Of a DNA stretch of 32,000 bases, positions 1,801 through 31,516 are shown piece by piece (position 1 is the first letter of the stretch; every line of letters starts with the position of its first letter). Source of the DNA: Candidatus Kuenenia stuttgartensis (GTDB taxonomy: Bacteria; Planctomycetota; Brocadiia; Brocadiales; Brocadiaceae). The position numbers were made by a program, and so were the translations under genes. The stretch lies in contig NZ_LT934425.1 of assembly GCF_900232105.1 (NCBI RefSeq), forward strand, positions 2,160,001 through 2,192,000, in the 5' to 3' direction. The notes beneath the pieces were generated by a model, which did no database searches, had not been told where the DNA came from, and was given only the letters and a program-made list of their open reading frames with translations.

Positions 1801-3184
1801 CATAAGCGCTAACTTGTTTTAGGTGCGCTCGAAGTATTTTGATATCTGTGTTTTTCGGATTCTTGTATTTTCTGCTAAAGAACAAGCAATGTCATTCCAG
1901 CACTTAAGAACTTCCTGTAATGATAACGCTGGTTCTATAGCCCGTTTTACTTGATTAAGCATAAAAGCAAATTCACGCCATTTGCTTTTAGTCTTCTTGC
2001 TTGACAATGAAGTATCCCCAGGGGGAAAAAGACGTAGCAAAATCTATTAGTTTTTCTGTCAAAAGAGCAACGAATAGTTTGCCATAAAGCCAAGCTTTTG
2101 AGCTATCATCATCGTATTTAGGTAAGTGTCCAAATTGTGCTATTTGTTTAAATCTTTTAAAGACCAGTTCAATTTGCCATCGAACTCGATACCATTCTAA
2201 GATATCAAAAGCGGTAAATTGATTTTCAGGAAACGTTGTGAATACTATTACGTACTTGGCATAAATAAGGGTCTCCGGTTTTAGTTCAATGCCCTTTTTG
2301 CTTGCATGTCTTTTAAGTTTTTTATGAGCTATTTTAATGGCTTCTTCTGTTTTGTGTATTATACAAAGACGACCTTTGACATATTCAGTATTATCAACGT
2401 TTGGAATAAAAACGTTCCATGATTTTATAGCAAGGGGTCTTTTTAAATATTGGATTTCTTTCAATAAAGGAAAGGGTTTCTTTTCTTCGCCGAATATCCG
2501 TAGAGATTGCGAATTAACTCTAACGCTAAGATAAGCGCCTTTCCTTGTTGCATGATGAATTCCTTGGCCAGTACAGTAACCTCTGTCAGCTATAATATAA
2601 TCATCTTTTTTCATCGGAAACTGCCGAAAAGATTCTCCTGTGCCTTCTCCTTCAGTTCCCGTAAGTTTAAAGAAATCGCAAGATAATGAAGGAACCTCAA
2701 TACTATAATGAATGCGCCAAAGACTTCCTGTTTTCCCAGGTTCCTTTACTGTTGTTGCATCAAATAAGCGAAGATGAAAATTATTCCGTTTATTAATTTG
2801 GAGGCCACGCTCACGGAATAAAGATAAACATAATTTATATAGCCATTCTTTGCTCTTTTTTAATCGCTTTAATAAGGCAACATCGGATAAATCTGCTAAG
2901 TTAGCACGCTTGGCTCGAACTACTGTTTCACGCAATGAATAGCCACATCCTAAATGAATTAATAATGTTCGAAGAAGCTTTTCTTCAGATTTATCCTTGC
3001 GCAAGCCTTTTAAAGCATTTGTATCAACGGCTAAACTTTTCCAATCGTTTGGGAAGAAAGTTCTTAGAAGATCCCAATCTTCTCTCATCATGGCTTTATC
3101 CTCCTATAGAGTGATTAGCGGGATAATTAACATAAAAATACCATGATGAATAAAATTTGTCAATAAAACAAGTTAGCGCTTATG
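1801..3184 (-). mobile_element. IS4-family insertion sequence, 1384 bp, complete ends
   Basis: Perfect 21-bp terminal inverted repeats: CATAAGCGCTAACTTGTTTTA at 1801-1821 and its reverse complement at 3164-3184. An 11-bp target-site duplication AGGCGCTGCCC lies at 1790-1800 and 3185-3195 (12 bp if the terminal C is counted). One DDE transposase ORF lies inside. Confidence 0.9.
1988..3091 (-). CDS. IS4-family DDE transposase (367 aa as called; possibly frameshifted near its 3' end)
   Basis: Candidate DDE residues sit in LFDATTV, IIADRGY and WQIELVF. The IS4 signature Y-x2-R-x3-E-x6-K is present in YRVRWQIELVFKRFK. An ORF in another frame (1819-2040) continues to within 18 nt of the left TIR, past a T5C5TG4 run. 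Confidence 0.85.
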   Translation of the reverse strand: MMREDWDLLRTFFPNDWKSLAVDTNALKGLRKDKSEEKLLRTLLIHLGCGYSLRETVVRAKRANLADLSDVALLKRLKKSKEWLYKLCLSLFRERGLQINKRNNFHLRLFDATTVKEPGKTGSLWRIHYSIEVPSLSCDFFKLTGTEGEGTGESFRQFPMKKDDYIIADRGYCTGQGIHHATRKGAYLSVRVNSQSLRIFGEEKKPFPLLKEIQYLKRPLAIKSWNVFIPNVDNTEYVKGRLCIIHKTEEAIKIAHKKLKRHASKKGIELKPETLIYAKYVIVFTTFPENQFTAFDILEWYRVRWQIELVFKRFKQIAQFGHLPKYDDDSSKAWLYGKLFVALLTEKLIDFATSFSPWGYFIVKQED

Positions 3185-6201: not shown

Positions 6202-6980
6202 AGGTTTTTGATAAATACTCCGAGTATTATGATATTCTCTATAACGACAAAGATTATGCTTCCGAGGCGGGTTTTATTGATACTATCATTAAAAAATACC
6301 GGCCAAATGCAAAATCAATCCTGAATCTCGGGTGCGGCACGGGAACCCATGATTTTCTCTTAGCACAAAAAGGATACGATATTACCGGCATAGACTGTTC
6401 CGGATCTAACATCAAAAAAGCGAACTCAAAACTTACAGATATCGATAAATTTAAAAATTGCCTGGAGTTCCATGAAGGTGATGTTCGCATCTACAGAGCA
6501 AATAAAACCTATGACATTGTTATTTCGCTGTTTCATGTAATCAGTTACCAAATTACTAATGCGGACTTGAAATCTGTTTTTGAAACTGTAAAGATACATC
6601 TGAATAATAATGGGCTTTTTATTTTTGATTGTTGGTACGGACCTGCAGTATTGCATGTGCGACCTGAAACGAGAATTAAGCGAGTAGAGAGTAAAGATAC
6701 CAGAATAATCAGGATTGCAGAACCGGAAATATTTCCAAACGAGAATAAGGTGCATGTAAAGTATCACGTATTCGTCATTGACAAAGTTACCAATAATGTT
6801 ACTGAAATCAGGGAAACCCACCCTATGCGGTATTTATTTAAGCCGGAGATAGATGAATTAGTATCTGTTTCAGGATTAAACACTTTAGAATGTGCCGAAT
6901 GGATGACGGACAATCCTTTAGGTTTAAATACATGGAAGGCTTATTTTGTCGCTACAAAGCAAATGGCGGTTGCTAAATGA
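6198..6980 (+). CDS. Class I SAM-dependent methyltransferase
   Basis: 260 aa. Motif I is ILNLGCGTGTHDFLLAQKGYDITGIDCS. A 4-nt ATGA overlap occurs with both neighbours. Confidence 0.8.
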   Translation: MKVFDKYSEYYDILYNDKDYASEAGFIDTIIKKYRPNAKSILNLGCGTGTHDFLLAQKGYDITGIDCSGSNIKKANSKLTDIDKFKNCLEFHEGDVRIYRANKTYDIVISLFHVISYQITNADLKSVFETVKIHLNNNGLFIFDCWYGPAVLHVRPETRIKRVESKDTRIIRIAEPEIFPNENKVHVKYHVFVIDKVTNNVTEIRETHPMRYLFKPEIDELVSVSGLNTLECAEWMTDNPLGLNTWKAYFVATKQMAVAK

Positions 6981-9900
6981 AACCGCGTCAGGAAAAAAAT
7001 AACAAATCCTTGCCACCCATCCTTGTCTATCAAATGGGCAAAGTAGGCTCCACAGCAATTTTGAAGTCATTGCAGAGACTGAATCTTTATAACAGAGTTT
7101 ACCACGCACATTTTTTGTCAAAAAGCGGGATAAAGAGTGTGGAAGATTACTACCGAAGCCTTCCATATATAGAAGTTCCTAACCATATTTACGAATCGAA
7201 ACAGATATGTATCGAGATTGAAAATTCCACACGAGAGCAGAAATGGAAAGTTATTACCCTTGTTAGAGATCCCATAGCCAGGGATATATCTGATCTATTT
7301 CAAAACATAGAGCGCGATTTCCCACAAATTAGAACACTTGATAGTAAAAATGCCCTGATAGAAATTAAAACATATTTATACAACATGATCATTAAATTTG
7401 ACGAATCAACTGATTATGCCTGCAGTTGGTTTGACAAAGAGATCAAGGAAGTATTCGGATTTGACGTCTATTCACATGACTTTAGCAAGACGAATGGTTA
7501 TCAAATATTTCAAACGGAAAAGGCAGATATTCTTGTCATTAAGTTGGAGAAATTATCTGAAATTCACAAGGAAGCTTTTCGGCAGTTTTTAGACATACAT
7601 GATTTTACTATCGTAAAAGAAAATATAGGGTCAGATAAGTGGTATAACGAATACTACAAAGAAGTAGTAAATTCATTGCGTATCCCTGGACAGATAGTTG
7701 ATAAAATATACGATTCCAGGTATTCAAAACATTTTTATACGGAGGGGGAGTTGTCTTCCTTTAAAGAAAAATGGTCCGGCAAGTCTTTTTACAATAAAAA
7801 AGACAAAAAAATATTGATTGTCCACCCGGAAGGAAACTTGCACAACAACCCTAATCTGAGCGGAATTGTGGAAATTCTATGTGAAAACGGTTGCAGTGCA
7901 GATGTTTTTTCTCTGAAGCATGAAACGATTGCTCAGAAGGCTCTGTGCTATGGATCACAGATGTTCCTTTTCGATGGGACACGAGATAGTACCGCTGGAG
8001 TATGCTTATTGGCTTCAAAAGTGTTTTTTTCCCCGCAAGAATTAGCACTACATGTACGAAGTGTTTACAAGGACTATGATCTCGTGGTTGGGGTTGACCG
8101 TGGTATTATTGAAGCTTCAATTATCGCTAGTGCACTGGAAGTTCCTTGTGGGTTGATCTCTTATGAAATATTTTTTGCTGATGAAGCCGGTGTGCAATTC
8201 AAACAGACTGAAATACACGCGTGTCAGAATATTTCTTTTGCTATCTGTCAGGATGAGATTCGCTCCGCTCAATTATCGAAGGAAAACAGGATTCCACTGG
8301 AAAAAATAATTAACATTCCGGTTGCCGGACGTGCCGTAAAACGCGGTGAAAGGTGTTGGTATTTTCACGATAAATTCGGAATAGACCACAGAAAGAAAAT
8401 AGCCCTTTTGGCGGGTAGTATTGATAAATGGACAATGGCGGAAGAACTTATAGAAAGCGTTTCACGCTGGGATCCTGAGTGGGTGCTGGTTTTGCACAAT
8501 CGTTACGGACTTGATGGTGGAGTGCATACCATATACGAACGCTACAAAAACAAACCAAATATTTACTTTTCGTTTGACCCTGTTAAATTAGTGCAAGATA
8601 TGCATATATTATTACATTCCTGCGATTTAGGCATAGCGCTCTACAGAGCAACCAAACAAGGTATTTTTACCGGTAATAATCTAACTTACCTCGGAATGGC
8701 ATCCGGTAAGATAGCTACATATCTTCAGCATGGCTTGCCGTTGCTTATCAATGAGATTGGCGAAATGAGCAGATACGTAGAGTCGTATGGTCTTGGTATA
8801 TCGCTTAAAAGTGGCGATGGTATAAACCCAGGAGCCTTGTGCGAAGCCCCTTTTGCATACAAAGAACGATGCTATGGCTTTTTTGAAAACAAATTAGATT
8901 TGAATAAAACGATTCATCCATTCCTTGATAAGATGAATTCTTTGTTGAGAAAATGGCAAAGTGATAGTTCCTACGGGAAAGCAGGACAGGTGTCATCGGC
9001 TGACGTGTTGAGTATCAGCACGGAAAAATCTTTGGAATTTCTTAATTTACTAGTCAAACAAGAATTGCAAGACGGTAATATACAGAAAGCTAAGGAACTA
9101 TTGTCGAAAATTCTTAATCAGTTACCGGACAATATAAAAGCGCTTAATAATCTTGCAGTTATTGAAATCCTTGAAAAGAATTGGGATGCGGCAACAGAAG
9201 CCTTAAGAAAGGTTTTATATCTTGACCCTTCCAACAAGGTTGCGCTGGAAAATACTAAACAATTGGAAAGACACCTTGTTTTATACAAGGCAGTTTTAGA
9301 AGCAGAAAAATTAGTAGGACAAAAGCAATATGCTGAAGCATATAAGATATTGGAAAAGGTTTTAGAAATTGACAAGAATTCCGTGGATGCCTTGAATGCT
9401 ATTGCTAAAATCAGAATTGCAAGAAACGATTTTGAAGTCGCCGGAAAGGTGTTAACCAAGGTATTACAATTACATCCGGCAAATAAAACTGCTATTGAAA
9501 GCCTCGAATACATAAAGAAACAAGTGAACGTTAAAGATCACGCACCGTTGCCAGCGGGGGCGACTGCACTTGGAACTACTGCCGTTACGACTGAAGCTTG
9601 TTCTGGAATATCCGGAAGAACAGAGGCAGATTTTCAACATCTATTAGAAATGCTTAATCTTCAAGCCAAACAAGCATTGCAAGAGGGTAATGCTAAAAAG
9701 GCAAAAGAACTATTAGCAAAAGTTCTTAACCAGTCACCAAATAATGTAAAAGCACTTAACAATTTTGCAGTAACGGAAATTCTTGAAAAAAATTGGGAAT
9801 CAGCACGAGAAGTTTTACAAAAAATTCTTGAACTTGATCCTTCTAATAATGTTGCACTTGAGAATGTTAAATATTTAGAAAATCAGGTATCTTTACATAA

Positions 9901-12013
9901 ATTATTTTTAGAAGCTGAGAAACTAATTGAACAGAAGGAATATTCGAATGCACGTGAGATATTGAAAAATATCTTAGAGATCGATGATAGGCACATTGAT
10001 GCACTTAATGATCTTGCGGTTATAGAAATCTCAGAAAATAACCTATTTAACGCAAGAGAAATTTTAAACAAAGTTTTAAGGAATGATTCTAACAATCAAA
10101 TTGCAAAGGAGAACTTGGAATATCTTGAGCAACTAATCCATGTATCAGAAGAGAAAAGTTCAGATATTAAAGTTTCTGCAATAGTATCGACATACAATTC
10201 CGAACGATTTATCCGTGGTTGTTTAGAGGATTTGACAAATCAAACATCATACAAGAAGGGTGCACTGGAAATTATTGTGATAGACAGTTGTTCACCGCAA
10301 AATGAACAAGCTATTGTTGATGAGTTTCAAAAATCATACAGGGACATTGTTTATATACGGACTGAAAAACGGGAAACCATTTATGCCGCCTGGAACCGGG
10401 CAATCAAAATTGCCAAAGGAGAATATATCACTAATGCCAATACGGATGACCGCCACCGCAAGGATGGTTTGGAAATTTTAGCAAATGAATTGGATGAAAA
10501 CCCTGATGTTGTATTGGTATACGGGAATCAAATTATTACCGAAACAGAAAATGAGACCTTTGAACACCACAAACCAGTTGGTGTCTTCCAATGGCCAGAT
10601 TTCAACAGAAATTATTTGTTAAAAGTATGCAGCATTGGACCACAACCGATGTGGAGAAAGTTAGTTCATAGTGAGTTTGGCTATTTTGATGATATATTCC
10701 AGGTCGCCGGAGACTATGAATTTTGGTTAAGAATTTCCCAAAAATATCATTTTAAACATATTCCTGAATATCTGGGATTATATCTAAGATCTCCACAAAG
10801 TGCAGAATATAGAAACCAGGAACTAACCCAACAAGAAACACTTGTTATTCAAGAAAAATATAAAAAGTTAAAGGATATCCAAGAGAAACCCATCGCGAAG
10901 TTACCATTAGTCAGCATCATTATTCCCACTTACAACAGACCAGGCACCCTGAAGATTGCACTGGAGAGTATTGTCGCACAAACGTACAAGTTTATTGAAA
11001 CCATTGTAGTTAACGACGCCGGAATAGATGTGCTAAATGTCATTGATACATTCAGGGATCGATTATCTATCAAATATTTCGTTCACAATATAAATAAAGA
11101 TCGCTCTGCTGCAAGAAATACTGCAATAAAACATGCTTCTGGTAAATATATTGCGTATCTTGATGATGATGATATTTTTTATCCCGACCATATTGAAACA
11201 CTGGTCAGCTTTCTGGAAACAAACAATACTTATAAAGTTGCTTATACAGATGCTTACAGGGCATTTCAAGAGAAGGAACACGGAAAATATATAACAAAAA
11301 ACAAAGAGATACCTTATTCTTTTGACTTTGACTATGATCGTATCCTTACGGGTAATTTTATACCGACGCCCTGTATTATGCATTATAAATCGTGCATTGA
11401 CGTTGTAGGAATATTTGATGAAACGCTTGGTGCTCACGAGGACTGGGATTTATGGATAAGGATGTCAACAAAATTCCAATTTGCGCATATCAGGAAAATT
11501 ACCTGTGAATATTCCTGGAGGGAAGATGGCTCGTCAACCACATTCGGTAGAAAAGAGGTAATGGATTATACAAGAAATGTTGTTTTACAACGGGGAATAA
11601 AAATTTACCGGGAAAAACAAATTAGAGGACTATTTAATAGAGCGGAAGCTTCATTTCAAAGTGGTGCTTACAACGAAGCGATTGATGCATATAAAAAAGC
11701 CATCGAAACAAGCCCTTCTCCCAAGCAACAATTACCGCCGGAAGAAACTTCCCGCCTTTATGACGCATACTACAATCTTGCCCTTTCATACATAAATACC
11801 CAAAAGGTAGACGATGCCATTGCTGCTTTCCGAAAGGCAGTTGAATTACACAATGCTGACGCCACTATTTATAACAATTTGGGCGTTTTGTATTTCAGGA
11901 AAAGAATGCATGATGATGCAAGGCACTGCTTTGAAAAGGCATTGGCAATAGACGTTGATTACGCAGAGGCGCAACAAAATCTTGAAAAAATATCCAGCCT
12001 GAAAATTTCATAA
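6977..12013 (+). CDS. Giant multidomain glycan-assembly protein: sulfotransferase-like + GT-B-like + 2x TPR block + 2x GT2 glycosyltransferase + TPR
   Basis: 1678-aa uninterrupted ORF.
- aa ~10-270: sulfotransferase-like PAPS motifs (YQMGKVGST resembles 5'-PSB; RDPIARDIS resembles 3'-PB).
- aa ~280-650: Rossmann/GT-B-like.
- aa 686-850 and 890-1054: paralogous TPR blocks.
- GT2 domain 1 from about nt 10166 (VSAIVSTYNSERF ... NANTDD).
- GT2 domain 2 from about nt 10904 (VSIIIPTYNRPG ... YLDDDD).
- C-terminal TPRs at about nt 11630-12010. Confidence 0.8.
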   Translation: MKPRQEKNNKSLPPILVYQMGKVGSTAILKSLQRLNLYNRVYHAHFLSKSGIKSVEDYYRSLPYIEVPNHIYESKQICIEIENSTREQKWKVITLVRDPIARDISDLFQNIERDFPQIRTLDSKNALIEIKTYLYNMIIKFDESTDYACSWFDKEIKEVFGFDVYSHDFSKTNGYQIFQTEKADILVIKLEKLSEIHKEAFRQFLDIHDFTIVKENIGSDKWYNEYYKEVVNSLRIPGQIVDKIYDSRYSKHFYTEGELSSFKEKWSGKSFYNKKDKKILIVHPEGNLHNNPNLSGIVEILCENGCSADVFSLKHETIAQKALCYGSQMFLFDGTRDSTAGVCLLASKVFFSPQELALHVRSVYKDYDLVVGVDRGIIEASIIASALEVPCGLISYEIFFADEAGVQFKQTEIHACQNISFAICQDEIRSAQLSKENRIPLEKIINIPVAGRAVKRGERCWYFHDKFGIDHRKKIALLAGSIDKWTMAEELIESVSRWDPEWVLVLHNRYGLDGGVHTIYERYKNKPNIYFSFDPVKLVQDMHILLHSCDLGIALYRATKQGIFTGNNLTYLGMASGKIATYLQHGLPLLINEIGEMSRYVESYGLGISLKSGDGINPGALCEAPFAYKERCYGFFENKLDLNKTIHPFLDKMNSLLRKWQSDSSYGKAGQVSSADVLSISTEKSLEFLNLLVKQELQDGNIQKAKELLSKILNQLPDNIKALNNLAVIEILEKNWDAATEALRKVLYLDPSNKVALENTKQLERHLVLYKAVLEAEKLVGQKQYAEAYKILEKVLEIDKNSVDALNAIAKIRIARNDFEVAGKVLTKVLQLHPANKTAIESLEYIKKQVNVKDHAPLPAGATALGTTAVTTEACSGISGRTEADFQHLLEMLNLQAKQALQEGNAKKAKELLAKVLNQSPNNVKALNNFAVTEILEKNWESAREVLQKILELDPSNNVALENVKYLENQVSLHKLFLEAEKLIEQKEYSNAREILKNILEIDDRHIDALNDLAVIEISENNLFNAREILNKVLRNDSNNQIAKENLEYLEQLIHVSEEKSSDIKVSAIVSTYNSERFIRGCLEDLTNQTSYKKGALEIIVIDSCSPQNEQAIVDEFQKSYRDIVYIRTEKRETIYAAWNRAIKIAKGEYITNANTDDRHRKDGLEILANELDENPDVVLVYGNQIITETENETFEHHKPVGVFQWPDFNRNYLLKVCSIGPQPMWRKLVHSEFGYFDDIFQVAGDYEFWLRISQKYHFKHIPEYLGLYLRSPQSAEYRNQELTQQETLVIQEKYKKLKDIQEKPIAKLPLVSIIIPTYNRPGTLKIALESIVAQTYKFIETIVVNDAGIDVLNVIDTFRDRLSIKYFVHNINKDRSAARNTAIKHASGKYIAYLDDDDIFYPDHIETLVSFLETNNTYKVAYTDAYRAFQEKEHGKYITKNKEIPYSFDFDYDRILTGNFIPTPCIMHYKSCIDVVGIFDETLGAHEDWDLWIRMSTKFQFAHIRKITCEYSWREDGSSTTFGRKEVMDYTRNVVLQRGIKIYREKQIRGLFNRAEASFQSGAYNEAIDAYKKAIETSPSPKQQLPPEETSRLYDAYYNLALSYINTQKVDDAIAAFRKAVELHNADATIYNNLGVLYFRKRMHDDARHCFEKALAIDVDYAEAQQNLEKISSLKIS
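9032..10139 (+). repeat. Intragenic tandem duplication of a ~165-aa TPR block (period 612 nt)
   Basis: Block 9032-9527 (LEFLNLLVKQELQDGNIQKAKELLSKILNQLPDNIKALNNLAVIEILEKNW...) aligns with block 9644-10139 (LEMLNLQAKQALQEGNAKKAKELLAKVLNQSPNNVKALNNFAVTEILEKNW...). They are joined by a low-complexity A/T/G-rich linker. Confidence 0.85.
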
Positions 12014-13040: not shown

Positions 13041-14402
13041 TTAGAGTCCGCTAATATTCATCGTCATCAGAAATTCGGCATTTGTTTTTGTTTTTGAAAG
13101 CCTGTTCTTTAATAATTCCATAGCTTCTATAGGATTCATTTCGTTAAGCACCTTTCTGAGTATCCAGATGCGTTTAATTTCGTCTGCATTAACAATTAAC
13201 TCTTCTTTGCGGGTACCTGAACGGGTAATATCAATTGCGGGAAACAGTCTGCGGTCTGCCAGCTTCCTGTCAAGATGAAGCTCCATATTGCCAGTGCCCT
13301 TGAACTCTTCAAAAATAACCTCATCCATCCTGCTTCCCGTATCAACAAGTGCGGTTGCAATGATGGTAAGGCTGCCGCCTTCTTCAATGTTTCTTGCAGC
13401 CCCGAAAAACCTTTTAGGTTTCTGAAGGGCACTTGCATCCACACCGCCGGACAGTATTTTGCCACTGTGGGGAATCTCTGTGTTGTATGCCCTTGCCAGT
13501 CTTGTGATGGAATCGAGCAGCACAACAACGTCTTTGCCATATTCCACCATGCGTTTTGCCTTTTCTATTACCATTTCCGCAACCTGAATATGCCTGCTTG
13601 CCGGCTCATCGAAGGTAGATCCTATAACCTCCGCATCAACCGACCTGTCCATATCCGTAACTTCTTCCGGCCTTTCATCGATGAGCAGGATAATCAAATA
13701 CGCTTCGGGATGGTTTTTTGTAATACTATTTGCTACTTTTTGAAGCAACACTGTTTTCCCCGTGCGTGGAGGCGCTACGATTAAACCCCTCTGGCCTTTG
13801 CCGATAGGCGTAACAAAATCCATAATTCTTGTCTCAAGTTCAGCAGGATCTTTTTCTAAAAAAAGCCTTTCAGTTGGGTGAAGGGGAGTCAGGTCATCAA
13901 AAACAATCTTATCTCCCATCATTTCCGGATTTTCAAAATTTATTGCCTCAACACGCAACAATGCAAAATACCGTTCTGAATCCTTTGGTGGCCTTATTTG
14001 CCCTGATACAACAGCGCCGGTACGAATGCCAAAACGGCGTATTTGCGAAGGCGAAATGTAGATGTCGTCCGGGCAAGGCAGGTAATTATAGTCAGGTGAA
14101 CGGAGAAAACCAAAACCCTCCGGAAGCACCTCCACTACGCCTTCTCCGTACATCAGACCATTTTGATTGACTCTTTCCTTCAGGATTTTAAAGATCAGTT
14201 CCTGCTTCTTTAATCCCGTGTATTCTTTAAGCCCTTCCTTCTTGGCGATATCCTGTAATTCCTTGATTGTTTTCTTTTGCAGTTCTGTTATGTGCATTTT
14301 GCCGCGTTTGATTTCCTCATATTTTTCATTTGTTTCTTTATCTATTACTTCTATTTCTTTTTTACTGTCCAAGACCATATTCATTGTCTCCTTACCTTTC
14401 AT
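13041..14402 (-). CDS. rho: Transcription termination factor Rho
   Basis: The 453-aa product has an N-terminal Rho_N helix bundle ([22 protein letters not shown]), a cold-shock-like RNA-binding region ([22 protein letters not shown]), Walker A (PPRTGKT) and the Q/R-loop region. The start is ambiguous: ATGs at 14402, 14384, 14378 and 14297. Confidence 0.95.
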
Positions 14403-21188: not shown

Positions 21189-22565
21189 TCAAAAAAACAG
21201 ATCTCTCTCCCCGTTTCTTATCCTTGCAAGCTTATCCTCTGTCTGCTTTTTTATAGAAGCGTTCTCTATTGCTTCCAGTGTCTTATTTATTATCTCCAGC
21301 CCTAAATGTCTGCTTTCCGGAGACGCGTTATCTTCCATATATTCCATAAGTGTAAGTATGCTATTAGGCCCGCAGAATTCCTGGATATCTCCCGGCCTTG
21401 CAAGTTCCATAAACACCGTGCCTGTCCTGCTCCTGCGGTAACAGGCGGTGCAAAAACTGGGCATGAAGCCCTCCTTCATGGCGCTCACGGTTATTTCTTC
21501 CAGACTCCTCTTGTCCGACAGCTCAAACTGTCCAGCCCCTTTTGGCCTTCCCTTCCCCAATCCGCCTGGCGTAGTGCTTGAGGCGGCGCTGGCCTGCGTA
21601 ATCCCGATGCGGAATGCCGCCTCTCTGATCTCAGGACTTTCCCTTGTGGTTATTATCATGCCTGTATAAGGAACGGCGATCCGAAGGATTGCTATGAGCC
21701 TCAGAAAATCGCTGTCACTTACAGGTGAAGGGGGTCTCAAATTAACCGAATGGGCGGGCCTGAGCCTTGGTATGGATATGGTGTGCGGGCCGGTTCCGAA
21801 CGTATCAAAAAGGTAAGCGGCATGGGATATCAGCCCCAGCACCTCATACCGCCAGTCATAGAGTCCGAAGAGTACGCCCATCCCTACGTCATCTATCCCG
21901 CCCTCAAAGGCTTTGTCCAGGGCATACAACTGTCTCCGGTAATCACTTTTAGGACCATGGTGGATTTTTTCGTAGGTAGGCCTGTGATAACTCTCCTGGA
22001 ATAGCTGGTATGTTCCAATGCCTTTGTCCTTTAGCCTTCTGTAGTTTTCAGCCGTTGTTGCGGCGATGTTTACATTGACCCTTCTTATTTCACCCTTTTC
22101 ATTCCTCACAGAATAGATGGCATCTATTGCATCAAGGATATAATCGACCGGATTATTTCCGATATCCTCTCCTGCCTCAAGAAGGACTCTCTTATGTCCC
22201 ATTTCTATGAGGCAGCCCGTCTGTTCTCTTACCTCATCCATGGTAAGTTTTTTTCTCATTGCAGGGTTACCTGCACGAAAGCCGCAGTATAGGCAATCAT
22301 TTACACAGTAATTGCTGATATAGAGGGGGGCGAAGAACACTAGTCTGCTGCCGTATACGGCATTTTTTATGTAACGGGCGGCGTCAAATATCTCCTCGGT
22401 TAACTCCAGATCGATGACGTTTATCAACATCGCCGCTTCTTCAGGGGTAAGCCCTTTCAGCTCCCTGCCCTTTTTTAAAACATCCGCCAGCATAGCCGTC
22501 GACGGTGAGGGGGTATTCGTGAGCAAGGATTGAAATCTATCTTCGTCTATAAATGTTTTTTGCAT
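21189..22565 (-). CDS. hydG: Radical SAM tyrosine lyase HydG ([FeFe]-hydrogenase H-cluster maturase type)
   Basis: 458 aa with the radical SAM motif CVNDCLYCGFR. The C-terminal CX2CX22C motif (CTAC + 22 residues + C, in SFCTACYRRSRTGTVFMELARPGDIQEFCGPN) distinguishes HydG from ThiH. Confidence 0.85.
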   Translation of the reverse strand: MQKTFIDEDRFQSLLTNTPSPSTAMLADVLKKGRELKGLTPEEAAMLINVIDLELTEEIFDAARYIKNAVYGSRLVFFAPLYISNYCVNDCLYCGFRAGNPAMRKKLTMDEVREQTGCLIEMGHKRVLLEAGEDIGNNPVDYILDAIDAIYSVRNEKGEIRRVNVNIAATTAENYRRLKDKGIGTYQLFQESYHRPTYEKIHHGPKSDYRRQLYALDKAFEGGIDDVGMGVLFGLYDWRYEVLGLISHAAYLFDTFGTGPHTISIPRLRPAHSVNLRPPSPVSDSDFLRLIAILRIAVPYTGMIITTRESPEIREAAFRIGITQASAASSTTPGGLGKGRPKGAGQFELSDKRSLEEITVSAMKEGFMPSFCTACYRRSRTGTVFMELARPGDIQEFCGPNSILTLMEYMEDNASPESRHLGLEIINKTLEAIENASIKKQTEDKLARIRNGERDLFF

Positions 22566-23627: not shown

Positions 23628-24911
23628 TTATTTAAACGCCTCCGCCATCTTTTTCTCAAGCATCTTGTAGCTAAGTGTTTCTTTATAAAGTCCGTATTTT
23701 TCCCAAATCTCTTCTTTCCCGTGATACTTATTTGGGTATATCCTGTAGTCGCCCCTGTACTTCTCAGGCGTCAGATTAAACATAAGCGAATTTGCGCCTG
23801 AAGAGAGTCCGAGCCGTCTTCCTTCTTCATTTTCAATGGTTTCAAGGGCGGTAGTGACCGGTATCTTTGCCTTTGGCATCAGCAATCTTGAAACGGCCGT
23901 TACCTTAAGCGTCATTGCCGCACTACCCGCCGGATGCACAGCCATAGGAGTGGTGTCTGTGGGTATAAACGGGCCTGCGGTCACCATGTTTGCGCCAATG
24001 GATTTAATAGTTATTATATCATCCGCTATATCCTCAACCGTCTGTCCGGGCAGCCCGATGAGAAACCCTGTGGCAATAAAATATCCCATCTTCTTCATTT
24101 CCATGAGTAGCGCAATCCTATCATCGAATGACTGGCCGGGGTGAAGGGAATGATAGAGCGCCTTGTTTGAAGTTTCAAAACGAAACAGAACGCCGTTTGC
24201 CCCGGCATCTTTCATTTTTCTGTAACCTTCTGACGTTCGTTCCCCAACGCTCATAAATATAAAAACCTTACACTTCTCCTTTATTTTTCTGATGATCCCG
24301 GACAGTATCTCGTTGGTATAGGATAAGTCGTCGCCCGACTGGAGAACTATAAGTTTATATCCGCGGTGGTTTACGGCGTCATACACGGAATTTACTATTT
24401 CATCCGGCGTCATTCTGTAACGCCGGACATTTTTTGAGTCCCTTCTGAGTCCGCAGTATAGGCAGTTCCTGACGCAATAGTTTGAAAACTCTACTATGCC
24501 GTGTATGCAGAAAAAATCCCTTAGCCTTGCCTGTCTTATGGTATTTGCCTCTGAAAACATGGCGGTCATCTCCGCATCCTCGCTGGTGCTGAGAAGCCTT
24601 ATTATCTCTTCGCGTTTAAGCTCTCTGGTGTGGCAAGCCTTGAGTATCTCCAGAAATGCGGCATCGAGCTTCGAAATATCTACATAACTTTTAGGCTCAA
24701 GGAGATCCAGTATTTCCCTCGCATCGTCTTCGCTTATTTTTTCCACCGCCGTATCAGAGGCGTAAAGAATCCAGTCACCGGCATGGACGTCAGTAAGCAA
24801 TGCGATTATCGATCTTTCGCCTTTTGAATCACGAATAGTAATTCTTCTTGCAGGCAAATTATCGGGTGAATCTTCAACGAATAGTACTTTTGCAGGAATG
24901 GTAAGGCACAT
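23628..24911 (-). CDS. hydE: Fusion protein: HypC/HupF-like N-terminal domain + HydE-type radical SAM maturase
   Basis: The start is taken at MCLTIPAKV (24911), which is the HypC-family N-terminal Met-Cys motif. It is followed by ...GDWILYASDTAVEKISEDDAREILDLL (HypC beta-barrel plus helix pattern). After a linker comes the HydE-like core IVEFSNYCVRNCLYCGLRRDSKNVRRYRMTPDEIV ... GFLIGLPGQT. The 27 codons upstream in the track ORF run into a dispersed repeat and are rejected. Confidence 0.75.
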   Translation of the reverse strand: MCLTIPAKVLFVEDSPDNLPARRITIRDSKGERSIIALLTDVHAGDWILYASDTAVEKISEDDAREILDLLEPKSYVDISKLDAAFLEILKACHTRELKREEIIRLLSTSEDAEMTAMFSEANTIRQARLRDFFCIHGIVEFSNYCVRNCLYCGLRRDSKNVRRYRMTPDEIVNSVYDAVNHRGYKLIVLQSGDDLSYTNEILSGIIRKIKEKCKVFIFMSVGERTSEGYRKMKDAGANGVLFRFETSNKALYHSLHPGQSFDDRIALLMEMKKMGYFIATGFLIGLPGQTVEDIADDIITIKSIGANMVTAGPFIPTDTTPMAVHPAGSAAMTLKVTAVSRLLMPKAKIPVTTALETIENEEGRRLGLSSGANSLMFNLTPEKYRGDYRIYPNKYHGKEEIWEKYGLYKETLSYKMLEKKMAEAFK

Positions 24912-24953
24912 AACAAAACCTCTTTGTTTGCAACAGGTTAGATTTTTGAAAAA

Positions 24954-25087
24954 GTAGGGGCGAAGCATTTGCCCGTTTGGGTATGAACGCATTCATGATA
25001 ATTTATAGCAAATGCTTCGCCCCTACACTTTACACTATGCGGAAAACATCGCTATTATTGGAATTTTTCAAAAAACTAAAATGTTAC
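24954..25087. repeat. 19-bp perfect inverted repeat plus a solo family-B-like MITE terminus
   Basis: GTAGGGGCGAAGCATTTGC (24954-24972) and GCAAATGCTTCGCCCCTAC (25008-25026) are separated by a 35-nt spacer. GAATTTTTCAAAAAACTAAAATGTTAC (25061-25087) matches the B2 terminus. A related arm fragment (AGGGCGAAGCATTTGC) occurs near 25781. Confidence 0.7.
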
Positions 25088-25806: not shown

Positions 25807-26529
25807 TCAACTTCTTATCTTGTCTTTTACAATTTCTTTTTTCAAGCTTGTGATAGAACCAGTAGGATTCAAGTCTTTCGGGCATACTTCCTGGCAATTG
25901 AACACAGAATGACAGCGCCATACGCCGTTTTCACTGTTTACAATAGCCAGCCGTTCCTGCCGTGCTCCGTCCCGGCTGTCGGAAACAAATCTGTCAATAT
26001 TGAGAAAAGACATTGGCCCCAGATAATCTTCGTGCATCGCTGTTATTGGACAGGAAGAGTGGCAGCATGCGCACAATATGCAGTCTATTAACCCATTCAG
26101 TTTTGATCTTTCATCCGTACTCTGTATTTGTTCCCCCTCAGAGGGCAATGGCCTTCCGGGCATGAGGTATGGTTTTATCTGCTCGTACTTTTCCCAAAAG
26201 GGTTTCATATCGACAAAGAGGTCTTTTTGTATTGCCATGTGGGCGAGGGGGCGAATGGTAACCGTCTTCGTATTCAGTTTGGAAATAAGAGTATTACAGG
26301 CAAGCCGGTATTTCCCGTTGATATGCATGGCGCATGAACCACAAACGGCGGCACGGCAGGACGACCGAAAGGCGAGAGAATCATCCCTATGCTGCTGAAT
26401 GTAAACAAGCCCTTCCAGCACAGTGAGATCTTTTCTCGTAAACGGTATTTCATATTTTTGGAAATATGCTTCCTTATCGCTGGCCGGATTAAACCGGAAG
26501 ATATTAAAGGAAATGGTATCGTTTGTCAT
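25807..26529 (-). CDS. Succinate dehydrogenase / fumarate reductase iron-sulfur subunit-like protein
   Basis: 240 aa. The 2Fe-2S motif is CRAAVCGSCAMHINGKYRLAC, the 4Fe-4S motif is CILCACCHSSCP and the third cluster motif is CHSVFNCQEVCP. The ATG overlaps the ftsY stop (ATGA). No flavoprotein or membrane subunit is adjacent. Confidence 0.8.
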   Translation of the reverse strand: MTNDTISFNIFRFNPASDKEAYFQKYEIPFTRKDLTVLEGLVYIQQHRDDSLAFRSSCRAAVCGSCAMHINGKYRLACNTLISKLNTKTVTIRPLAHMAIQKDLFVDMKPFWEKYEQIKPYLMPGRPLPSEGEQIQSTDERSKLNGLIDCILCACCHSSCPITAMHEDYLGPMSFLNIDRFVSDSRDGARQERLAIVNSENGVWRCHSVFNCQEVCPKDLNPTGSITSLKKEIVKDKIRS

Positions 26530-27797
26530 TGTTCTAATAAGGTTTCTACAAACAAGTCCGGGTTGAATCTTTCAATATCGTCCGCCTGTTCTCCAAGCCC
26601 GATAAATTTAACAGGGATTTCTGTTTCATTGCACATGCCAAGCACTATGCCGCCTTTTGCCGTACCGTCCAGTTTTGCCAGAAATATTCCGGTGACGTCC
26701 ACGGCCTCCCTGAACATCCTGGCCTGTGAAATAGCATTTTGTCCGGTAGTTGCGTCGAGCACCAGTAATACCTCATGCGGCGCATCGGGTATTTTTTTTT
26801 TAATAACCCTCTTTATTTTTATAAGTTCTTTCATAAGATTATCGTGGGTATGGAGACGTCCTGCGGTGTCTACGATTAAAACATCAACACCACGGGCGAT
26901 GCTTGCTTCCATGGCGTCGTATGCGACAGCGGCGGGGTCAGAACCCGTTTGATGCTTTACAATATCTGCCCCGATGCGTTTGCACCAGATATCCAGTTGG
27001 TCTACTGCCGCTGCCCGGAAAGTATCGCCTGCGGCAAGCATTACCTTTTTGCCTTCCTTCATCAAAAAACTCGCGAGCTTCGCGATGGAGGTAGTTTTGC
27101 CCACCCCGTTAACGCCAACTACCATAATGACGGTAGGCCGTTTATCTGCGTATTGAATATCCGTCTGCCACGAATGCAAACCGTCCTTCAGGCGGTCTTT
27201 GATAAAATCATTTATTTGTGATGTTTCGGTAATTGCTTTCTCTTTCCATGCCTCGCGTATTTCTTCGATAAGTTTTTGTACCGGACGCACCCCTATATCC
27301 GCTCCAATGAGAATATCTTCCAATTCTTCAAGAGCTGATTCATCAATGCCTTGTCTGAATGATAAAAAATCTTTTAAACGCAGCCAAAACCGGCCCCGTG
27401 TCTTTTCGAGCCCTTTTTTTAACTTGCCCGGCACAGCAACAGGTTCTTTTTTGATAACGGGTTTTTCTTTTATTTCCTCAACAACCGGTATCTCTTCCGG
27501 AACAACAAGCTCTTCCGGTGGTGCTTTCTCCAGGACAGACATTTCAGGCGGGGCGAAAACCGGTTTCACCGGAGGCGCTTTTTCCACTACGGCTGTTTCA
27601 GCAGGAACGTGCTTTTCCACCACCGCTTTTTCCGCAAGCACAGGCACCTGATCAAAAGGTACCAGCCGTATCGTGCCTTCTTCTTCAATAACAACCTTTT
27701 TTCTCGGTTCAACGGTGTAGTTTATGATGCGGTACCAAAGGCTCTTTTTGGTCTTTTGAATGCCGTTTTTTACTTCAGTCTTTTGTGTTTTTCCCAT
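26526..27797 (-). CDS. ftsY: Signal recognition particle receptor FtsY
   Basis: 423 aa. The N-terminal region is P/E/V-rich and acidic. The NG domain carries GVNGVGKTT, DTAGR and TKLDGTAKGG-like (AKLDGTAKGG) motifs. Confidence 0.93.
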   Translation of the reverse strand: MGKTQKTEVKNGIQKTKKSLWYRIINYTVEPRKKVVIEEEGTIRLVPFDQVPVLAEKAVVEKHVPAETAVVEKAPPVKPVFAPPEMSVLEKAPPEELVVPEEIPVVEEIKEKPVIKKEPVAVPGKLKKGLEKTRGRFWLRLKDFLSFRQGIDESALEELEDILIGADIGVRPVQKLIEEIREAWKEKAITETSQINDFIKDRLKDGLHSWQTDIQYADKRPTVIMVVGVNGVGKTTSIAKLASFLMKEGKKVMLAAGDTFRAAAVDQLDIWCKRIGADIVKHQTGSDPAAVAYDAMEASIARGVDVLIVDTAGRLHTHDNLMKELIKIKRVIKKKIPDAPHEVLLVLDATTGQNAISQARMFREAVDVTGIFLAKLDGTAKGGIVLGMCNETEIPVKFIGLGEQADDIERFNPDLFVETLLEQ

Positions 27798-27848: not shown

Positions 27849-29117
27849 TCAATTATTGCGGCATCGCTGTTTCAACAGTTTCACAAGGTTCCCCGGTATA
27901 GAGATCTTTGCTATCGGAGTGTCAACCTTTCTTTTTCCGTGAAAGTCGGAACCGCCGGTTGCCACAAGGTCATATTTTTTTGCGAGTTTGAGGTATTTCT
28001 CCACGGTAGCTTTAGTATATGCAGGGTAGTACACTTCTATTCCCTGCAAACCATACCTTACAAGGTCCTCAATTAAATTATCCCGTTGTGTAAGTCCCGG
28101 ATGGGCAAGCACCGGAGCCCCTTTCGCTTCTCTTATCAGCTCTATTGCCTCTTGTGGAGTTAAGGTTTTTTTGGGAACATATGCGGGCGCTTTATCACCA
28201 ATGTATTTATAAAAGGCATCCACTAATGTGCTGGTATATCCGTTGCGCCAGATTACTTCTGCTAAATGCATACGTCCAGGTGAACCTTCCCCTGCAAGAT
28301 CAAACACTTCAACCGGATTGATCTCTACCTGAAGCCCGTGCAGTTTTTCTATCATTTTGTAAATACGTTCAATTCTGTCCTCACGTGCCTTTTTCATTAA
28401 TCCAATTAATGCATCATTATGAATATCAATAAAATAACCTAAAATATGTATTTCTGAAGGGTCCAGAAATGCAGAAATTTCTATGGCGGGAATAATTTGC
28501 AAATTCCCCCCTTTATTGTATTTGTCTGCCCTCAAAAATCCCTGAATAGTATCATGATCGGTGATGGCAATTGCGGATAAACCCAGTCGTATGGCTTCAT
28601 CAACAACCTCTTCCGGCGTTGCAGTGCCATCGGAGAAATTTGTGTGTATATGTAAGTCGGAAATGCCAAAATCAGGGGCTTTTTCCTCTTGTATCGTGTC
28701 TTTCTGTTTTCCGTTTTTCAGCCAATTGTATACTTTATCTAAAATACCATTAACAAACATCCCGGAATCTTTATCGCCGAATTTTTTGGCAAGTTCTATT
28801 GCTTCATTAATAGAAACCTTTGGTGGGATGTCATCTCTATAGAGCAACTCATACACGCCAAGTCTCAGGATGTTCTTGTCAATGACGGCCATCCGGTGCA
28901 AATCCCAGTTTTCCGCGGAAAGTGAAATTCTTTCATCGATCTCTTTTACATGAGATCTGCAGCCCGTGACAAGCAACAGGGCAAACTTATATATATCAGG
29001 TTTTTCCGCATTCTGCCGGCAGAATTCATCTATTTCCGTTTCCGCTTTGTCTCCGAGTAAATCGAGCTGATACAACGCTTTAATGGCAAGCTCGCGGGCA
29101 ATTGTTCTGTTGCGCAT
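27849..29117 (-). CDS. nusB: Fusion protein: NusB antitermination factor + PHP-domain phosphoesterase (TrpH/YciV, RNase AM-like)
   Basis: aa 1-~140 read RTIARELAIKALYQLDL...INEAIELAKKFGDKDSGMFVNGILDKV (NusB). aa ~150-422 read ISDLHIHTNFSDGTATPEEVVDEAIRLGLSAIAITDHDT ... LAHPG ... GIEVYYP ... ATGGSDFHG (PHP metal-binding motifs). It lies downstream of ribH, the classic ribH-nusB arrangement. Confidence 0.8.
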   Translation of the reverse strand: MRNRTIARELAIKALYQLDLLGDKAETEIDEFCRQNAEKPDIYKFALLLVTGCRSHVKEIDERISLSAENWDLHRMAVIDKNILRLGVYELLYRDDIPPKVSINEAIELAKKFGDKDSGMFVNGILDKVYNWLKNGKQKDTIQEEKAPDFGISDLHIHTNFSDGTATPEEVVDEAIRLGLSAIAITDHDTIQGFLRADKYNKGGNLQIIPAIEISAFLDPSEIHILGYFIDIHNDALIGLMKKAREDRIERIYKMIEKLHGLQVEINPVEVFDLAGEGSPGRMHLAEVIWRNGYTSTLVDAFYKYIGDKAPAYVPKKTLTPQEAIELIREAKGAPVLAHPGLTQRDNLIEDLVRYGLQGIEVYYPAYTKATVEKYLKLAKKYDLVATGGSDFHGKRKVDTPIAKISIPGNLVKLLKQRCRNN

Positions 29118-29455
29118 ATAATACTTTCAGACCAAAATAAAAAAAATTAACATAATTAATGAAGAATAATGATGTGTCTCTGAGTTTGATGAATAAAGGG
29201 AAAATAAATAGTTGCACAAATGGGAACATGCGGGATTATTATCAATAATCGTCATGCGGCAGCATGAAAATATACTGTAAGGGCTTACAAACAGGGATTT
29301 CTATGTTTACTCATAACTTTTGTTTTAATAACTGGTTATAGCATTTGGGAAATATCCTTTTGTGAACTCCTTGAGTATGCAGTACTTTTTTTACATCGAG
29401 GCGTCTGGTGGGAGAAGTGTTGAAAAAGGGATAACGTATAATGTTTGCTACCGGT

Positions 29456-29920
29456 TTATATTTGATCAAAGAGATTCACCATTTCTATTGCCGATAAAGC
29501 GGCCTCTGTGCCTTTATTTCCTGTTTTCGCACCAGCACGGTCAATTGCTTGCTCTAACGTTTCTGTTGTAATAACTCCATAGATGACCGGTATTCCGGAG
29601 GACAAACCAATCTGCGTAATGCCTTTCGCTGATTCGCTGGCTACAAAATCAAAGTGGGGCGTTTCGCCGCGAATAATCGCTCCAAGGCAAATAACGGCAT
29701 CATACTTTCCTCTTTGTATAACCTTTTGAGCGGTAATGGGAATCTCGTAAGCGCCGGGTACCCAAAAAACGCCAATATCCTCTTCTTTTACCCCATGCCT
29801 TACAAGACCATCAATCGCGCCTTCCAGTAAACGTTTTGTGATGAAACCGTTATATCGGCTCACGATAATCCCAAAGGTCCTGCCCGTACCGATTAATTTC
29901 CCCTGATATTCAACGCCCAT
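29456..29920 (-). CDS. ribH: 6,7-dimethyl-8-ribityllumazine synthase
   Basis: 154 aa with [28 protein letters not shown] and [14 protein letters not shown]. Confidence 0.93.
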
Positions 29921-30175: not shown

Positions 30176-31516
30176 GTGGATATAAAAGAGGAAGAGTACG
30201 GGAAAATCGAAGACGCCAGGATGCCTTTAGGCTCACATTTGGAAGAGTTGCGGCGTAGAGTCTTTTATTCTATCATCGCAATTATTTTCTGTTTTATATT
30301 ATGCTGGGTCTTTAAGCTGCACATTTTGGATATAGTAAAGCGGCCTCATGGCATTGCTATGCATAAGCTGGGACTTTCCACCGAATTGCAAGTGCTGAGT
30401 TATCAGGAAGGTTTTTACGCATACATGAAGCTGTGCTTCATCAGCGCCATTTTTTTAATGTATCCCCTTATCATTTATCAGGCATGGAGATTTGTCAGCG
30501 CGGGGCTGTATGCGAAGGAAAAAAGGTACATTCTCGTTTTCTTCCCGGTTTCATACATTGCTTTCGTTATGGGCGGGCTTTTCGGATATTATTTATTAAT
30601 CCCCTTTGGCTTGCAATTTTTAATAAGCATCCTTGGCCCCGGCATTCAACCCATCATTACGATGCAACAATATGTGTCGTTTGTTTTCCTGCTGACGGTC
30701 GCGCTTGGGCTGGTATTTCAACTACCTCTTGTAATGCTGCTTTTGTCAAAGATAGGATTCGTATCTGCAGATAACTTTATTAAGTGGAGAAAATATTCAA
30801 TACTTGTTATTTTCATTATTGCTGCCATAGTAACACCGCCAGACCCTTTTACCCAGACAATGACAGCCGCCCCAATGATCCTGTTGTATGAATTAGGGAT
30901 ACTCGTGGCAAAACCAACAAAAAAGGGGTTTATTTTACTTGGTATGGTTGTTGGGCTTGGTATTGTCGCCCTCGCGGCAGCATATTTTTATTTTACACAT
31001 ACACGAGGAATGATAGACCTTTCCCGCGTCTATGGGAATATGCAATTACAAAAGGCCGAAGATCATAAGTGGAAAAAGGTATCCTCTGTTGACCGCTTCC
31101 ATAGCGGCGTTGTTCTCAAAACCGGCGACGGAGAGAAGTCTTCATTTTCGACTAAAAATGGGATTGGCGTAAACATGGATTCGAATACCGAAATGTACTT
31201 TATTGATCCATGGAAAATTAACCTCCAAAAAGGGCAAATATTTCTCTCCCTTGCAAACTTGAAAAAAAATCTGGAGATTCTTACCCTAAATGGAAAGATT
31301 GTGGCAGATAACGGAATTTTTAATGTCCGGATAACGGAGTACGCCACTATTGTTACTGCGGTAAAGGGAGAAGCCACATTAATGCTGGAAGGTGAAACAA
31401 AAAAATTGCTTGAGGGCAGACAGCGCAAAATGGCTGCCGGGGGAGAACCCGTGGATATTCATTCCATAATTGATTGGTCTGAAGGCATCATAACGGATGT
31501 ACAGGGCAAAGAATAA
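30176..31516 (+). CDS. tatC: TatC twin-arginine translocase subunit with an extra TM helix and a C-terminal FecR-like domain
   Basis: aa ~16-250 form the TatC core (MPLGSHLEELRRR, FVSAGLYAKEKRY, IVTPPDPFTQ). aa ~252-274 form an additional hydrophobic helix (GFILLGMVVGLGIVALAAAYFYF). aa ~280-446 are a beta-rich FecR-like pattern (W..V...D.F..G..LKTGDG..S.F....G..V.MDSNTE......K..L.KGQ.F.....K...LEI.T..G.I.....IFNV........V.AVKGEA.L). The start is either GTG 30176 or ATG 30221. Confidence 0.75.
   Translation: MDIKEEEYGKIEDARMPLGSHLEELRRRVFYSIIAIIFCFILCWVFKLHILDIVKRPHGIAMHKLGLSTELQVLSYQEGFYAYMKLCFISAIFLMYPLIIYQAWRFVSAGLYAKEKRYILVFFPVSYIAFVMGGLFGYYLLIPFGLQFLISILGPGIQPIITMQQYVSFVFLLTVALGLVFQLPLVMLLLSKIGFVSADNFIKWRKYSILVIFIIAAIVTPPDPFTQTMTAAPMILLYELGILVAKPTKKGFILLGMVVGLGIVALAAAYFYFTHTRGMIDLSRVYGNMQLQKAEDHKWKKVSSVDRFHSGVVLKTGDGEKSSFSTKNGIGVNMDSNTEMYFIDPWKINLQKGQIFLSLANLKKNLEILTLNGKIVADNGIFNVRITEYATIVTAVKGEATLMLEGETKKLLEGRQRKMAAGGEPVDIHSIIDWSEGIITDVQGKE

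Follow-up and report, generated by a model that had tools for sequence, protein, structure and literature searches.

Why should the antitermination factor NusB be made as one polypeptide with a PHP-type phosphoesterase? The question is raised by a gene of Candidatus Kuenenia stuttgartensis on the minus strand of contig NZ_LT934425.1, within the 32,000-nucleotide stretch from position 2,160,001 to 2,192,000 that was analyzed here (the window). NusB and RNase AM (Rnm/YciV/TrpH), the enzyme type that the PHP half resembles, are each well studied, and we know of nothing that links them in model organisms. The best explanation, which we hold at about even confidence, is that the PHP half is a 5'-to-3' exonuclease tethered to the antitermination complex of the ribosomal RNA (rRNA) operon, rrn; what we infer from sequence is that the protein binds boxA and S10, works as a nuclease and acts on rRNA precursors while they are being transcribed.

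The sequence-only reading of this DNA had described one uninterrupted open reading frame (ORF) of 422 amino acids with a NusB domain and then a PHP domain, and reading of the ORF together with Pfam and NCBIfam searches bears this out. The gene and its parts are as follows.

27849..29117, minus strand: whole nusB-PHP fusion gene, a single ORF of 422 codons plus stop with zero internal stops, in which both domains are detected
28725..29117, minus strand: NusB domain, residues 1-131 (Pfam PF01029, TIGR01951, Foldseek)
28662..28724, minus strand: interdomain linker, residues 132-152, of low predicted local distance difference test score (pLDDT), low identity and variable length
27918..28661, minus strand: PHP (TrpH/YciV/RNase AM-type) phosphoesterase domain with its helical insertion, residues 153-400 (NF047791, Protein Data Bank (PDB) sequence matches, Foldseek)
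27852..27917, minus strand: C-terminal tail with a helix, residues 401-422 (model helix 409-420; mean identity 0.39)

A stop or frameshift at the domain junction (28670-28700, inside the linker) had been raised as a concern. None is present, and the same frame runs through both domains in at least 101 of the 129 genomes of the class, on which ground we rejected a frameshift or assembly artefact as the origin of the fusion. These uninterrupted matches come from families f1, f2, f105 and f106 of the same order and f111 and f112 of another; about 5 further class genomes are fused through a longer linker (verified in locus L027), families f104, f107, f109 and f110 are unfused exceptions, and one genome of a fused lineage, G500, carries an in-frame TAG. 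When 399 genomes of the phylum were scanned, f101 was the one family beyond the class to show the fusion (L024, L025). The closest named proteins belong to Candidatus Kuenenia, Brocadia, Jettenia and Scalindua. The best 120 matches in a collection of 5.8 billion proteins all have both Pfam domains, and a profile-free scan of 1.84 billion representatives gave about 7 fused clusters at 50% identity among 34,527 matches. Databases label the fused proteins simply "NusB", a full-text literature search found no paper describing a NusB-PHP fusion, and no solved chain with both parts was among the Foldseek matches. The architecture is the rule within its class, real and not rare there, and we found no paper that characterizes it.

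Trees of the PHP domain and of concatenated NusB and PHP sequences both place the fused proteins in two clades, one being the class and the other f101 beside the unfused families f40 and f58. Independent origins were considered and not retained, as the approximately unbiased test does not reject a single fused clade (p 0.28). Whichever topology is right, the unfused lineages within the class and the in-frame TAG of G500 call for two or more events of fusion or fission. Collectively, these data indicate that the fusion is real and ancient.

The N-terminal half has the marks of a true NusB. Residues 6-130 match Pfam NusB (E 5.6e-37), and the NCBIfam nusB model TIGR01951 scores 139.3 bits, over its equivalog cut-off of 88.35. 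For structure we built an AlphaFold2 model on an alignment of 93 fused homologues, the set to which the conservation counts below refer; it shows the all-helical NusB fold (helices in residues 2-137, high pLDDT), with Foldseek template modeling scores (TM) of 0.83-0.91 to solved NusB structures and 0.91 to NusB in the NusB-NusE-BoxA complex 3r2c. Residues Y16, D117 and F121 align with Y18, D118 and F122 of E. coli NusB, and among the 93 fused proteins F121 is kept in all and Y16 in all but one. The protein thus shares with the NusB of E. coli, A. aeolicus and T. maritima (PDB 3D3B, 3R2C, 1TZT; E. coli rrn transcription antitermination complex, rrnTAC, 6TQN) an equivalog-level match, the fold, ribH-nusB synteny, the Y18 and F122 counterparts and a boxA-like target in the rrn leader. 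It differs from them in a C-terminal extension of about 290 amino acids and in the D118 position, which is Asn or Lys in most fused relatives.

That position is worth recording in its own right: residue 117 (window 28767-28769) is Asp here, whereas most fused proteins have Asn (53) or Lys (26), and D118 of E. coli NusB is the site of the NusB101 D118N allele (PDB 3imq).

Searching the complete genome (4.41 Mb, single contig), we found that the only other NusB-domain match is RsmB (L002 1471..2880) and the only other PHP match a 213-amino-acid protein of a different subfamily. A second NusB or a second TrpH elsewhere is thereby rejected, a separate yciV/trpH having been one of the points left to check; the fusion supplies the genome's sole NusB and its sole TrpH/YciV-type enzyme. 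RsmB, the 16S rRNA m5C967 methyltransferase, is itself an instructive likeness, an enzyme acting on rRNA that has a NusB-like domain at its N terminus; there, however, the NusB-like domain is a diverged paralogue, whereas here the fused partner is the true and only NusB. As judged from these matches, the NusB module should bind S10 (NusE) and boxA RNA and join the antitermination complex.

A candidate target for that binding lies upstream of the one 16S gene in the genome. Its leader has a promoter (TTGATA-17-TATATT) and, about 20 nucleotides after the predicted transcript start and about 105 nucleotides upstream of the 16S gene, the boxA-like sequence TGTTCTTTTATAA, which agrees at 10 of 13 positions with what we take to be the E. 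coli boxA. In 59 genomes of the order, a leader search returned, besides the 16S 5' end, a conserved 38-nucleotide island around this motif. Of 28 loci examined in the order, 25 have a boxA-like TG(T/C)TC(T/A)TT with an A-rich tail at a distance of 105-160 nucleotides before the 16S anchor, and by these comparisons the putative boxA element is conserved in the 16S leader. Leader nucleotides 47-79 pair with the first 35 nucleotides past the 16S 3' end in a predicted duplex of -60.8 kcal/mol, compared with -49.2 (standard deviation 5.3) for shuffled sequences, which leaves about 58 nucleotides between the leader stem and the mature 16S 5' end. Given that Rho is encoded in the window itself (13041..14402), antitermination is needed.

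The C-terminal half belongs to the PHP superfamily, and the sequence-only reading had called its HxH...D...H...H...DFH metal pattern complete while allowing that the active site might prove degenerate on alignment. We mapped the site by HMMER alignment to 7ug9 and the E. coli RNase AM residue list of PMC9410882. The ligands are intact: nine residues for three metals (H156, H158, D163, H188, E213, H224, H339, D391 and H393) correspond in order to His13, His15, Asp20, His45, Glu72, His83, His198, Asp255 and His257 of E. coli RNase AM and are invariant in the fused sequences. Equally invariant are R248, R251 and R282, the counterparts of the 5'-phosphate pocket Arg107/Arg110/Arg141, and F302, the counterpart of the base-stacking Phe161. 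A helical insertion domain is present between the barrel strands (model helices 235-330; full-length structural matches 3e0f, 9etk and 2yb1). The PHP module accordingly looks like an RNase AM-like enzyme built for 5'-phosphorylated nucleotides, with its catalytic site intact, and it may act as a 5'-to-3' exoribonuclease.

Its place within the superfamily is less close to the known enzymes. Pfam recognizes the start of the PHP domain at residues 154-219 (E 1.5e-13), and two NCBIfam models cover the rest at scores beneath their equivalog cut-offs: RNase RNM NF047791 (residues 152-394, 160.5 bits, cut-off 375) and NF041577, the 3',5'-nucleoside bisphosphate phosphatase (residues 154-402, 158.2 bits, cut-off 400). 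PDB sequence matches are 3e0f, 9etk, 7ug9 and 2yb1, with Foldseek TM of 0.86 to 3e0f (BAD_1165), 0.81 to 9etk (V. cholerae RNase AM), 0.81 to 2yb1 (Cv1693) and 0.80 to 7ug9 (the PHP domain of E. coli RNase AM). RNase AM of E. coli and V. cholerae (PDB 7UG9, 9ETK) has the same barrel and insertion, metal ligands, pocket and stacking Phe; against it, the PHP half is about 30% identical, has Leu or Val in place of Arg201 and is fused or adjacent to NusB, while the E. coli enzyme is free-standing and late-acting. BAD_1165 of Bifidobacterium adolescentis (PDB 3E0F/3O0F), a putative metal-dependent phosphoesterase and the best match of the PHP part (E 1.3e-35), is stand-alone, and its PDB title assigns no function. 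Cv1693 of Chromobacterium violaceum (PDB 2YB1), a 3',5'-nucleoside bisphosphate phosphatase, has the same fold and active-site architecture; the PHP half falls under the cut-off of that family, and its own genome has a separate CysQ. We know of no link between Cv1693 and NusB. The PHP half forms a clade of its own in the superfamily and is not an orthologue of E. coli Rnm.

How the halves are held together is suggested by conservation and by the model. Compared with the window protein, the fused homologues average an identity of 0.63 in NusB, 0.58 in PHP and 0.20 in the linker, and the stretch from the LDK to the DLH motif varies from 21 to 55 amino acids. The model has a mean pLDDT of 90.5 and a predicted TM (pTM) of 0.65, and residues 137-146 fall below pLDDT 50. 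As modeled, the fusion protein is two well-folded domains on a disordered tether. Given the pTM and the disordered linker, there is no confident fixed interface between NusB and PHP, and we rejected such an interface as unsupported by the model.

The two genes also occur side by side where they are not fused. Taking the best PHP locus from each of 50 Planctomycetota genomes, we counted 5 fused loci, 23 loci (nine further families) with nusB immediately upstream of the PHP gene, and 22 with the PHP gene apart from nusB. Typically in the adjacent cases, the nusB stop overlaps the PHP start, by 4 nucleotides in L031, L032, L033, L045, L048, L049 and L069 and by 8 nucleotides in L038, L044 and L068. 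In L021-L023 both genes share one frame with only the stop and one codon between them; these pairs, from some genomes of f40 and f58, are one substitution short of fusion, and read-through may yield some fused protein. At their junctions (L021 3426-3434, L022 3857-3865, L023 4034-4042, gene strand) the PHP gene has a TTG start.

The gene's setting in the window had been described as the conserved ribH-nusB position, and this holds: ribH lies upstream, and the order is kept in most related loci, the local block being ribH-nusB-PHP-ftsY.

29456..29920, minus strand: ribH (lumazine synthase), upstream neighbor (PF00885, E 1e-57)
29118..29455, minus strand: AT-rich spacer of 338 nucleotides from ribH to nusB-PHP, read from the sequence
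26526..27797, minus strand: ftsY (signal recognition particle receptor), 51 nucleotides downstream of the fusion gene (PF00448, E 6e-78)

The fusion gene and ftsY are probably in the same operon, and Planctomycetota and Verrucomicrobiota alike keep ftsY after the PHP gene. Beyond these phyla, we scanned all prokaryotes (one genome per species) with a 10-sequence PHP alignment and examined the best 80 loci, those of the closest standalone homologues. Among them nusB stands directly upstream of PHP in 22/22 loci of Omnitrophota, 8/9 of Planctomycetota, 3/3 of Verrucomicrobiota and in one unnamed bacterium, and in 0/45 from Chloroflexota, Bacillota and a dozen other phyla. Since the Omnitrophota loci lack the downstream ftsY and the Verrucomicrobiota loci lack the upstream ribH, the constant element is the nusB-PHP pair. 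Together, the fusion and the adjacent pairs in three related phyla suggest that rRNA trimming is tied to rRNA transcription.

Two further observations concern single loci. Six metagenome-assembled genomes (MAGs) labeled "uncultured Planctomycetia/Planctomycetales" (L087, L094, L096, L097, L104, L109) fall inside the Omnitrophota clade of the NusB and PHP tree; their NCBI phylum labels may be wrong, which would affect the Planctomycetota count of 8/9. On a 2.8-kb contig of a Thermoplasmata archaeon MAG (L119) lies a TrpH-like PHP gene of bacterial type with 43% identity to the window PHP domain; it may reflect bin contamination or horizontal transfer.

The mechanism that we favor would run as follows. 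The NusB module and S10 would bind boxA near the start of the single rRNA operon's transcript, and the module would thereby enter the antitermination complex on RNA polymerase. On its disordered linker of about 20-55 amino acids the nuclease would stay within a few nanometers of NusB, close both to the leader RNA and to the point where RNA leaves the polymerase. With a 5'-monophosphorylated nucleotide seated in its three-metal pocket, it would cleave the bond on the 3' side of that nucleotide and so trim in the 5'-to-3' direction; its substrates there could be 5'-monophosphate ends left by RNase III or RNase E/G. Likely targets would be the extension of about 58 nucleotides that pre-16S rRNA still carries or, once excised, the leader piece with boxA. 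The E. coli enzyme carries out 5'-end maturation of 5S, 23S and 16S rRNA (PMC7261194) and is processive on a 40-nucleotide 5'-phosphorylated RNA (PMC9410882). RNase III-RNase AM fusions occur in some deltaproteobacteria (Jain 2020, PMC7261194); they too join an RNase AM-type domain to another rRNA-processing component, the partner there being an endonuclease and not a transcription factor. Given these fusions and the role of E. coli RNase AM in rRNA 5'-end maturation, a tethered trimming nuclease fits known biology. The coupling of antitermination and maturation by fusion, as the sequence-only reading had proposed it, gains indirect support from the pair across three phyla with differing flanks, the conserved boxA-like element and the conserved 5'-monophosphate pocket, while the coupling itself we still infer.

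Several points weigh against a tethered rRNA-trimming nuclease. E. coli RNase AM is late-acting, works on assembled particles and trims only the last 3 nucleotides (PMC7261194), and the PHP part scores far under the RNase RNM equivalog cut-off. Arg201, which contacts the scissile phosphate in E. coli RNase AM, is L342 here and Leu or Val in most fused sequences; given that the position is also hydrophobic in close PHP relatives not linked to nusB, its loss marks a wider clade and not the fusion, and we found no residue signature there that separates nusB-linked from unlinked PHPs. The leader-trailer duplex is only about 2 standard deviations better than shuffles, and a confident NusB-PHP interface was not found in the AlphaFold2 model. 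The PHP gene stands beside ftsY without nusB in four loci (L042, L043, L046, L051), so that part of the linkage is plain operon synteny. Finally, the genome encodes one RNase E/G and two beta-CASP proteins, and other enzymes could therefore mature 5' ends. No RNase J equivalog was found in the genome; given the beta-CASP proteins, we nonetheless rejected the idea that no enzyme but the PHP domain could be a 5'-3' exonuclease.

Two facts speak for a functional partnership: more than 100 genomes keep the fusion, and Planctomycetota, Verrucomicrobiota and Omnitrophota keep the translationally coupled pair. Such a partnership would give a large, uncharacterized clade of COG0613 enzymes a cellular context, and it raises the testable idea that in bacteria rRNA 5'-end trimming or leader clearance can be linked physically to the polymerase as it transcribes. 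Also relevant here is an open proposal, that RNase AM-like enzymes can work at elongation complexes (PMC8501993). A stronger version, which we regard as doubtful, has the nuclease as a built-in subunit of the antitermination complex that rides RNA polymerase through NusB and processes 5'-monophosphate ends once RNase III or RNase E/G makes them. In this stronger version the enzyme would serve co-transcriptional maturation of the pre-16S 5' end, clearance of the boxA leader that recycles NusB, or torpedo-like surveillance; if true, bacteria of the Planctomycetes-Verrucomicrobia-Chlamydiae (PVC) group would offer the first 5'-3' exoribonuclease physically integrated in a bacterial elongation complex.

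In E. coli, SuhB belongs to the rRNA antitermination complex, and we considered whether the PHP domain takes its place here. This was rejected: of 41 further genomes of the family, 38, the same genus included, have an intact SuhB-like inositol monophosphatase as a single frame of about 270 amino acids, and only in the present assembly is the gene split. Here it lies outside the window at G000:C1:2997950-2998715 on the minus strand (L019 1143..1968), in two overlapping frames that part at model position 138/139; the cause is either one wrong base in the assembly or a frameshift peculiar to the strain.

The alternative that survives best, though we consider it unlikely, is a neutral fusion of operon neighbors. 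A stop codon would have been lost between two overlapping genes with no mechanistic coupling, and the PHP half would be a housekeeping nuclease for short 5'-phosphorylated RNA (nanoRNA or dinucleotides), merely co-expressed with NusB. E. coli nusB itself sits in an operon with unrelated genes, and the block ribH-nusB-PHP-ftsY, with the PHP gene beside ftsY in the four loci where nusB is absent, is what this account expects, as is a model with no NusB-PHP interface. The f40 and f58 pairs one substitution from fusion and the in-frame TAG of G500 point to a labile state, and RNase AM of P. aeruginosa is a diribonuclease (PMC11528712). However, nusB-PHP is the only element that stays constant across three phyla with differing flanks, over 100 members of a deep class have retained the fusion under strong constraint on its two halves, and two NrnA-sized DHH/DHHA1 proteins in the genome could already act as nanoRNases. 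Should the coupling prove neutral, the locus would be a clean example of fusion by stop-codon loss between overlapping genes.

We think it improbable that the PHP half is instead the cell's 3',5'-bisphosphate nucleotidase, a Cv1693-like phosphatase of 3'-phosphoadenosine 5'-phosphate (pAp) with no role on RNA. Its NF041577 score nearly equals the RNase RNM score, the fold matches Cv1693, and pAp is bound by the same pocket; yet that score is far under the family's cut-off, and this account leaves the conserved pairing with NusB unexplained. The genome moreover encodes a CysQ over its own equivalog cut-off (258.8 vs 228.8 bits), and with this dedicated enzyme pAp hydrolysis is covered.

Another proposal, to our minds quite improbable, has the nuclease acting on nascent transcript 5' ends in some other manner, either by non-canonical decapping of the flavin adenine dinucleotide (FAD) type or as a polymerase-associated "torpedo" after endonucleolytic cleavage. 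E. coli RNase AM removes FAD caps (PMC9410882), a proposal in the literature (PMC8501993) holds that RNase AM-like proteins might make up a third torpedo class, boxA lies only about 20 nucleotides from the predicted transcript start, and the genome search found no RNase J equivalog. The proposal is nevertheless purely speculative: NusB complexes suppress termination and do not cause it, two beta-CASP proteins are available, and primary transcripts carry a triphosphate that should not fit a 5'-monophosphate pocket. Barely credible is the PHP half as the missing phosphatase of riboflavin synthesis, dephosphorylating 5-amino-6-ribitylamino-2,4(1H,3H)-pyrimidinedione 5'-phosphate (ARPP), for which its place downstream of ribH and the histidinol-phosphate phosphatases among PHP enzymes (weak matches) would speak, but the invariant second-phosphate pocket R248, R251 and R282 and base-stacking F302 are those of nucleotide and RNA enzymes, and the Verrucomicrobiota pairs lack ribH.

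Elsewhere in the window, several genes drew our attention independently of the fusion. At 30176-31516 on the plus strand, one ORF joins TatC (residues 20-233) to a C-terminal FecR-like domain (314-400), which is unusual for a Tat translocase subunit. A radical SAM protein with an N-terminal HupF/HypC-like domain (residues 28-98) is encoded at 23628-24992 on the minus strand, near a second radical SAM/BATS protein at 21189-22565. A DDE transposase lies at 1988-3091. On the plus strand at 6977-12013, after genes for a DegT-type aminotransferase and a methyltransferase, a 1678-amino-acid protein combines a capsular-polysaccharide NKWYS domain, long tetratricopeptide repeat (TPR) arrays and two family-2 glycosyltransferase domains.

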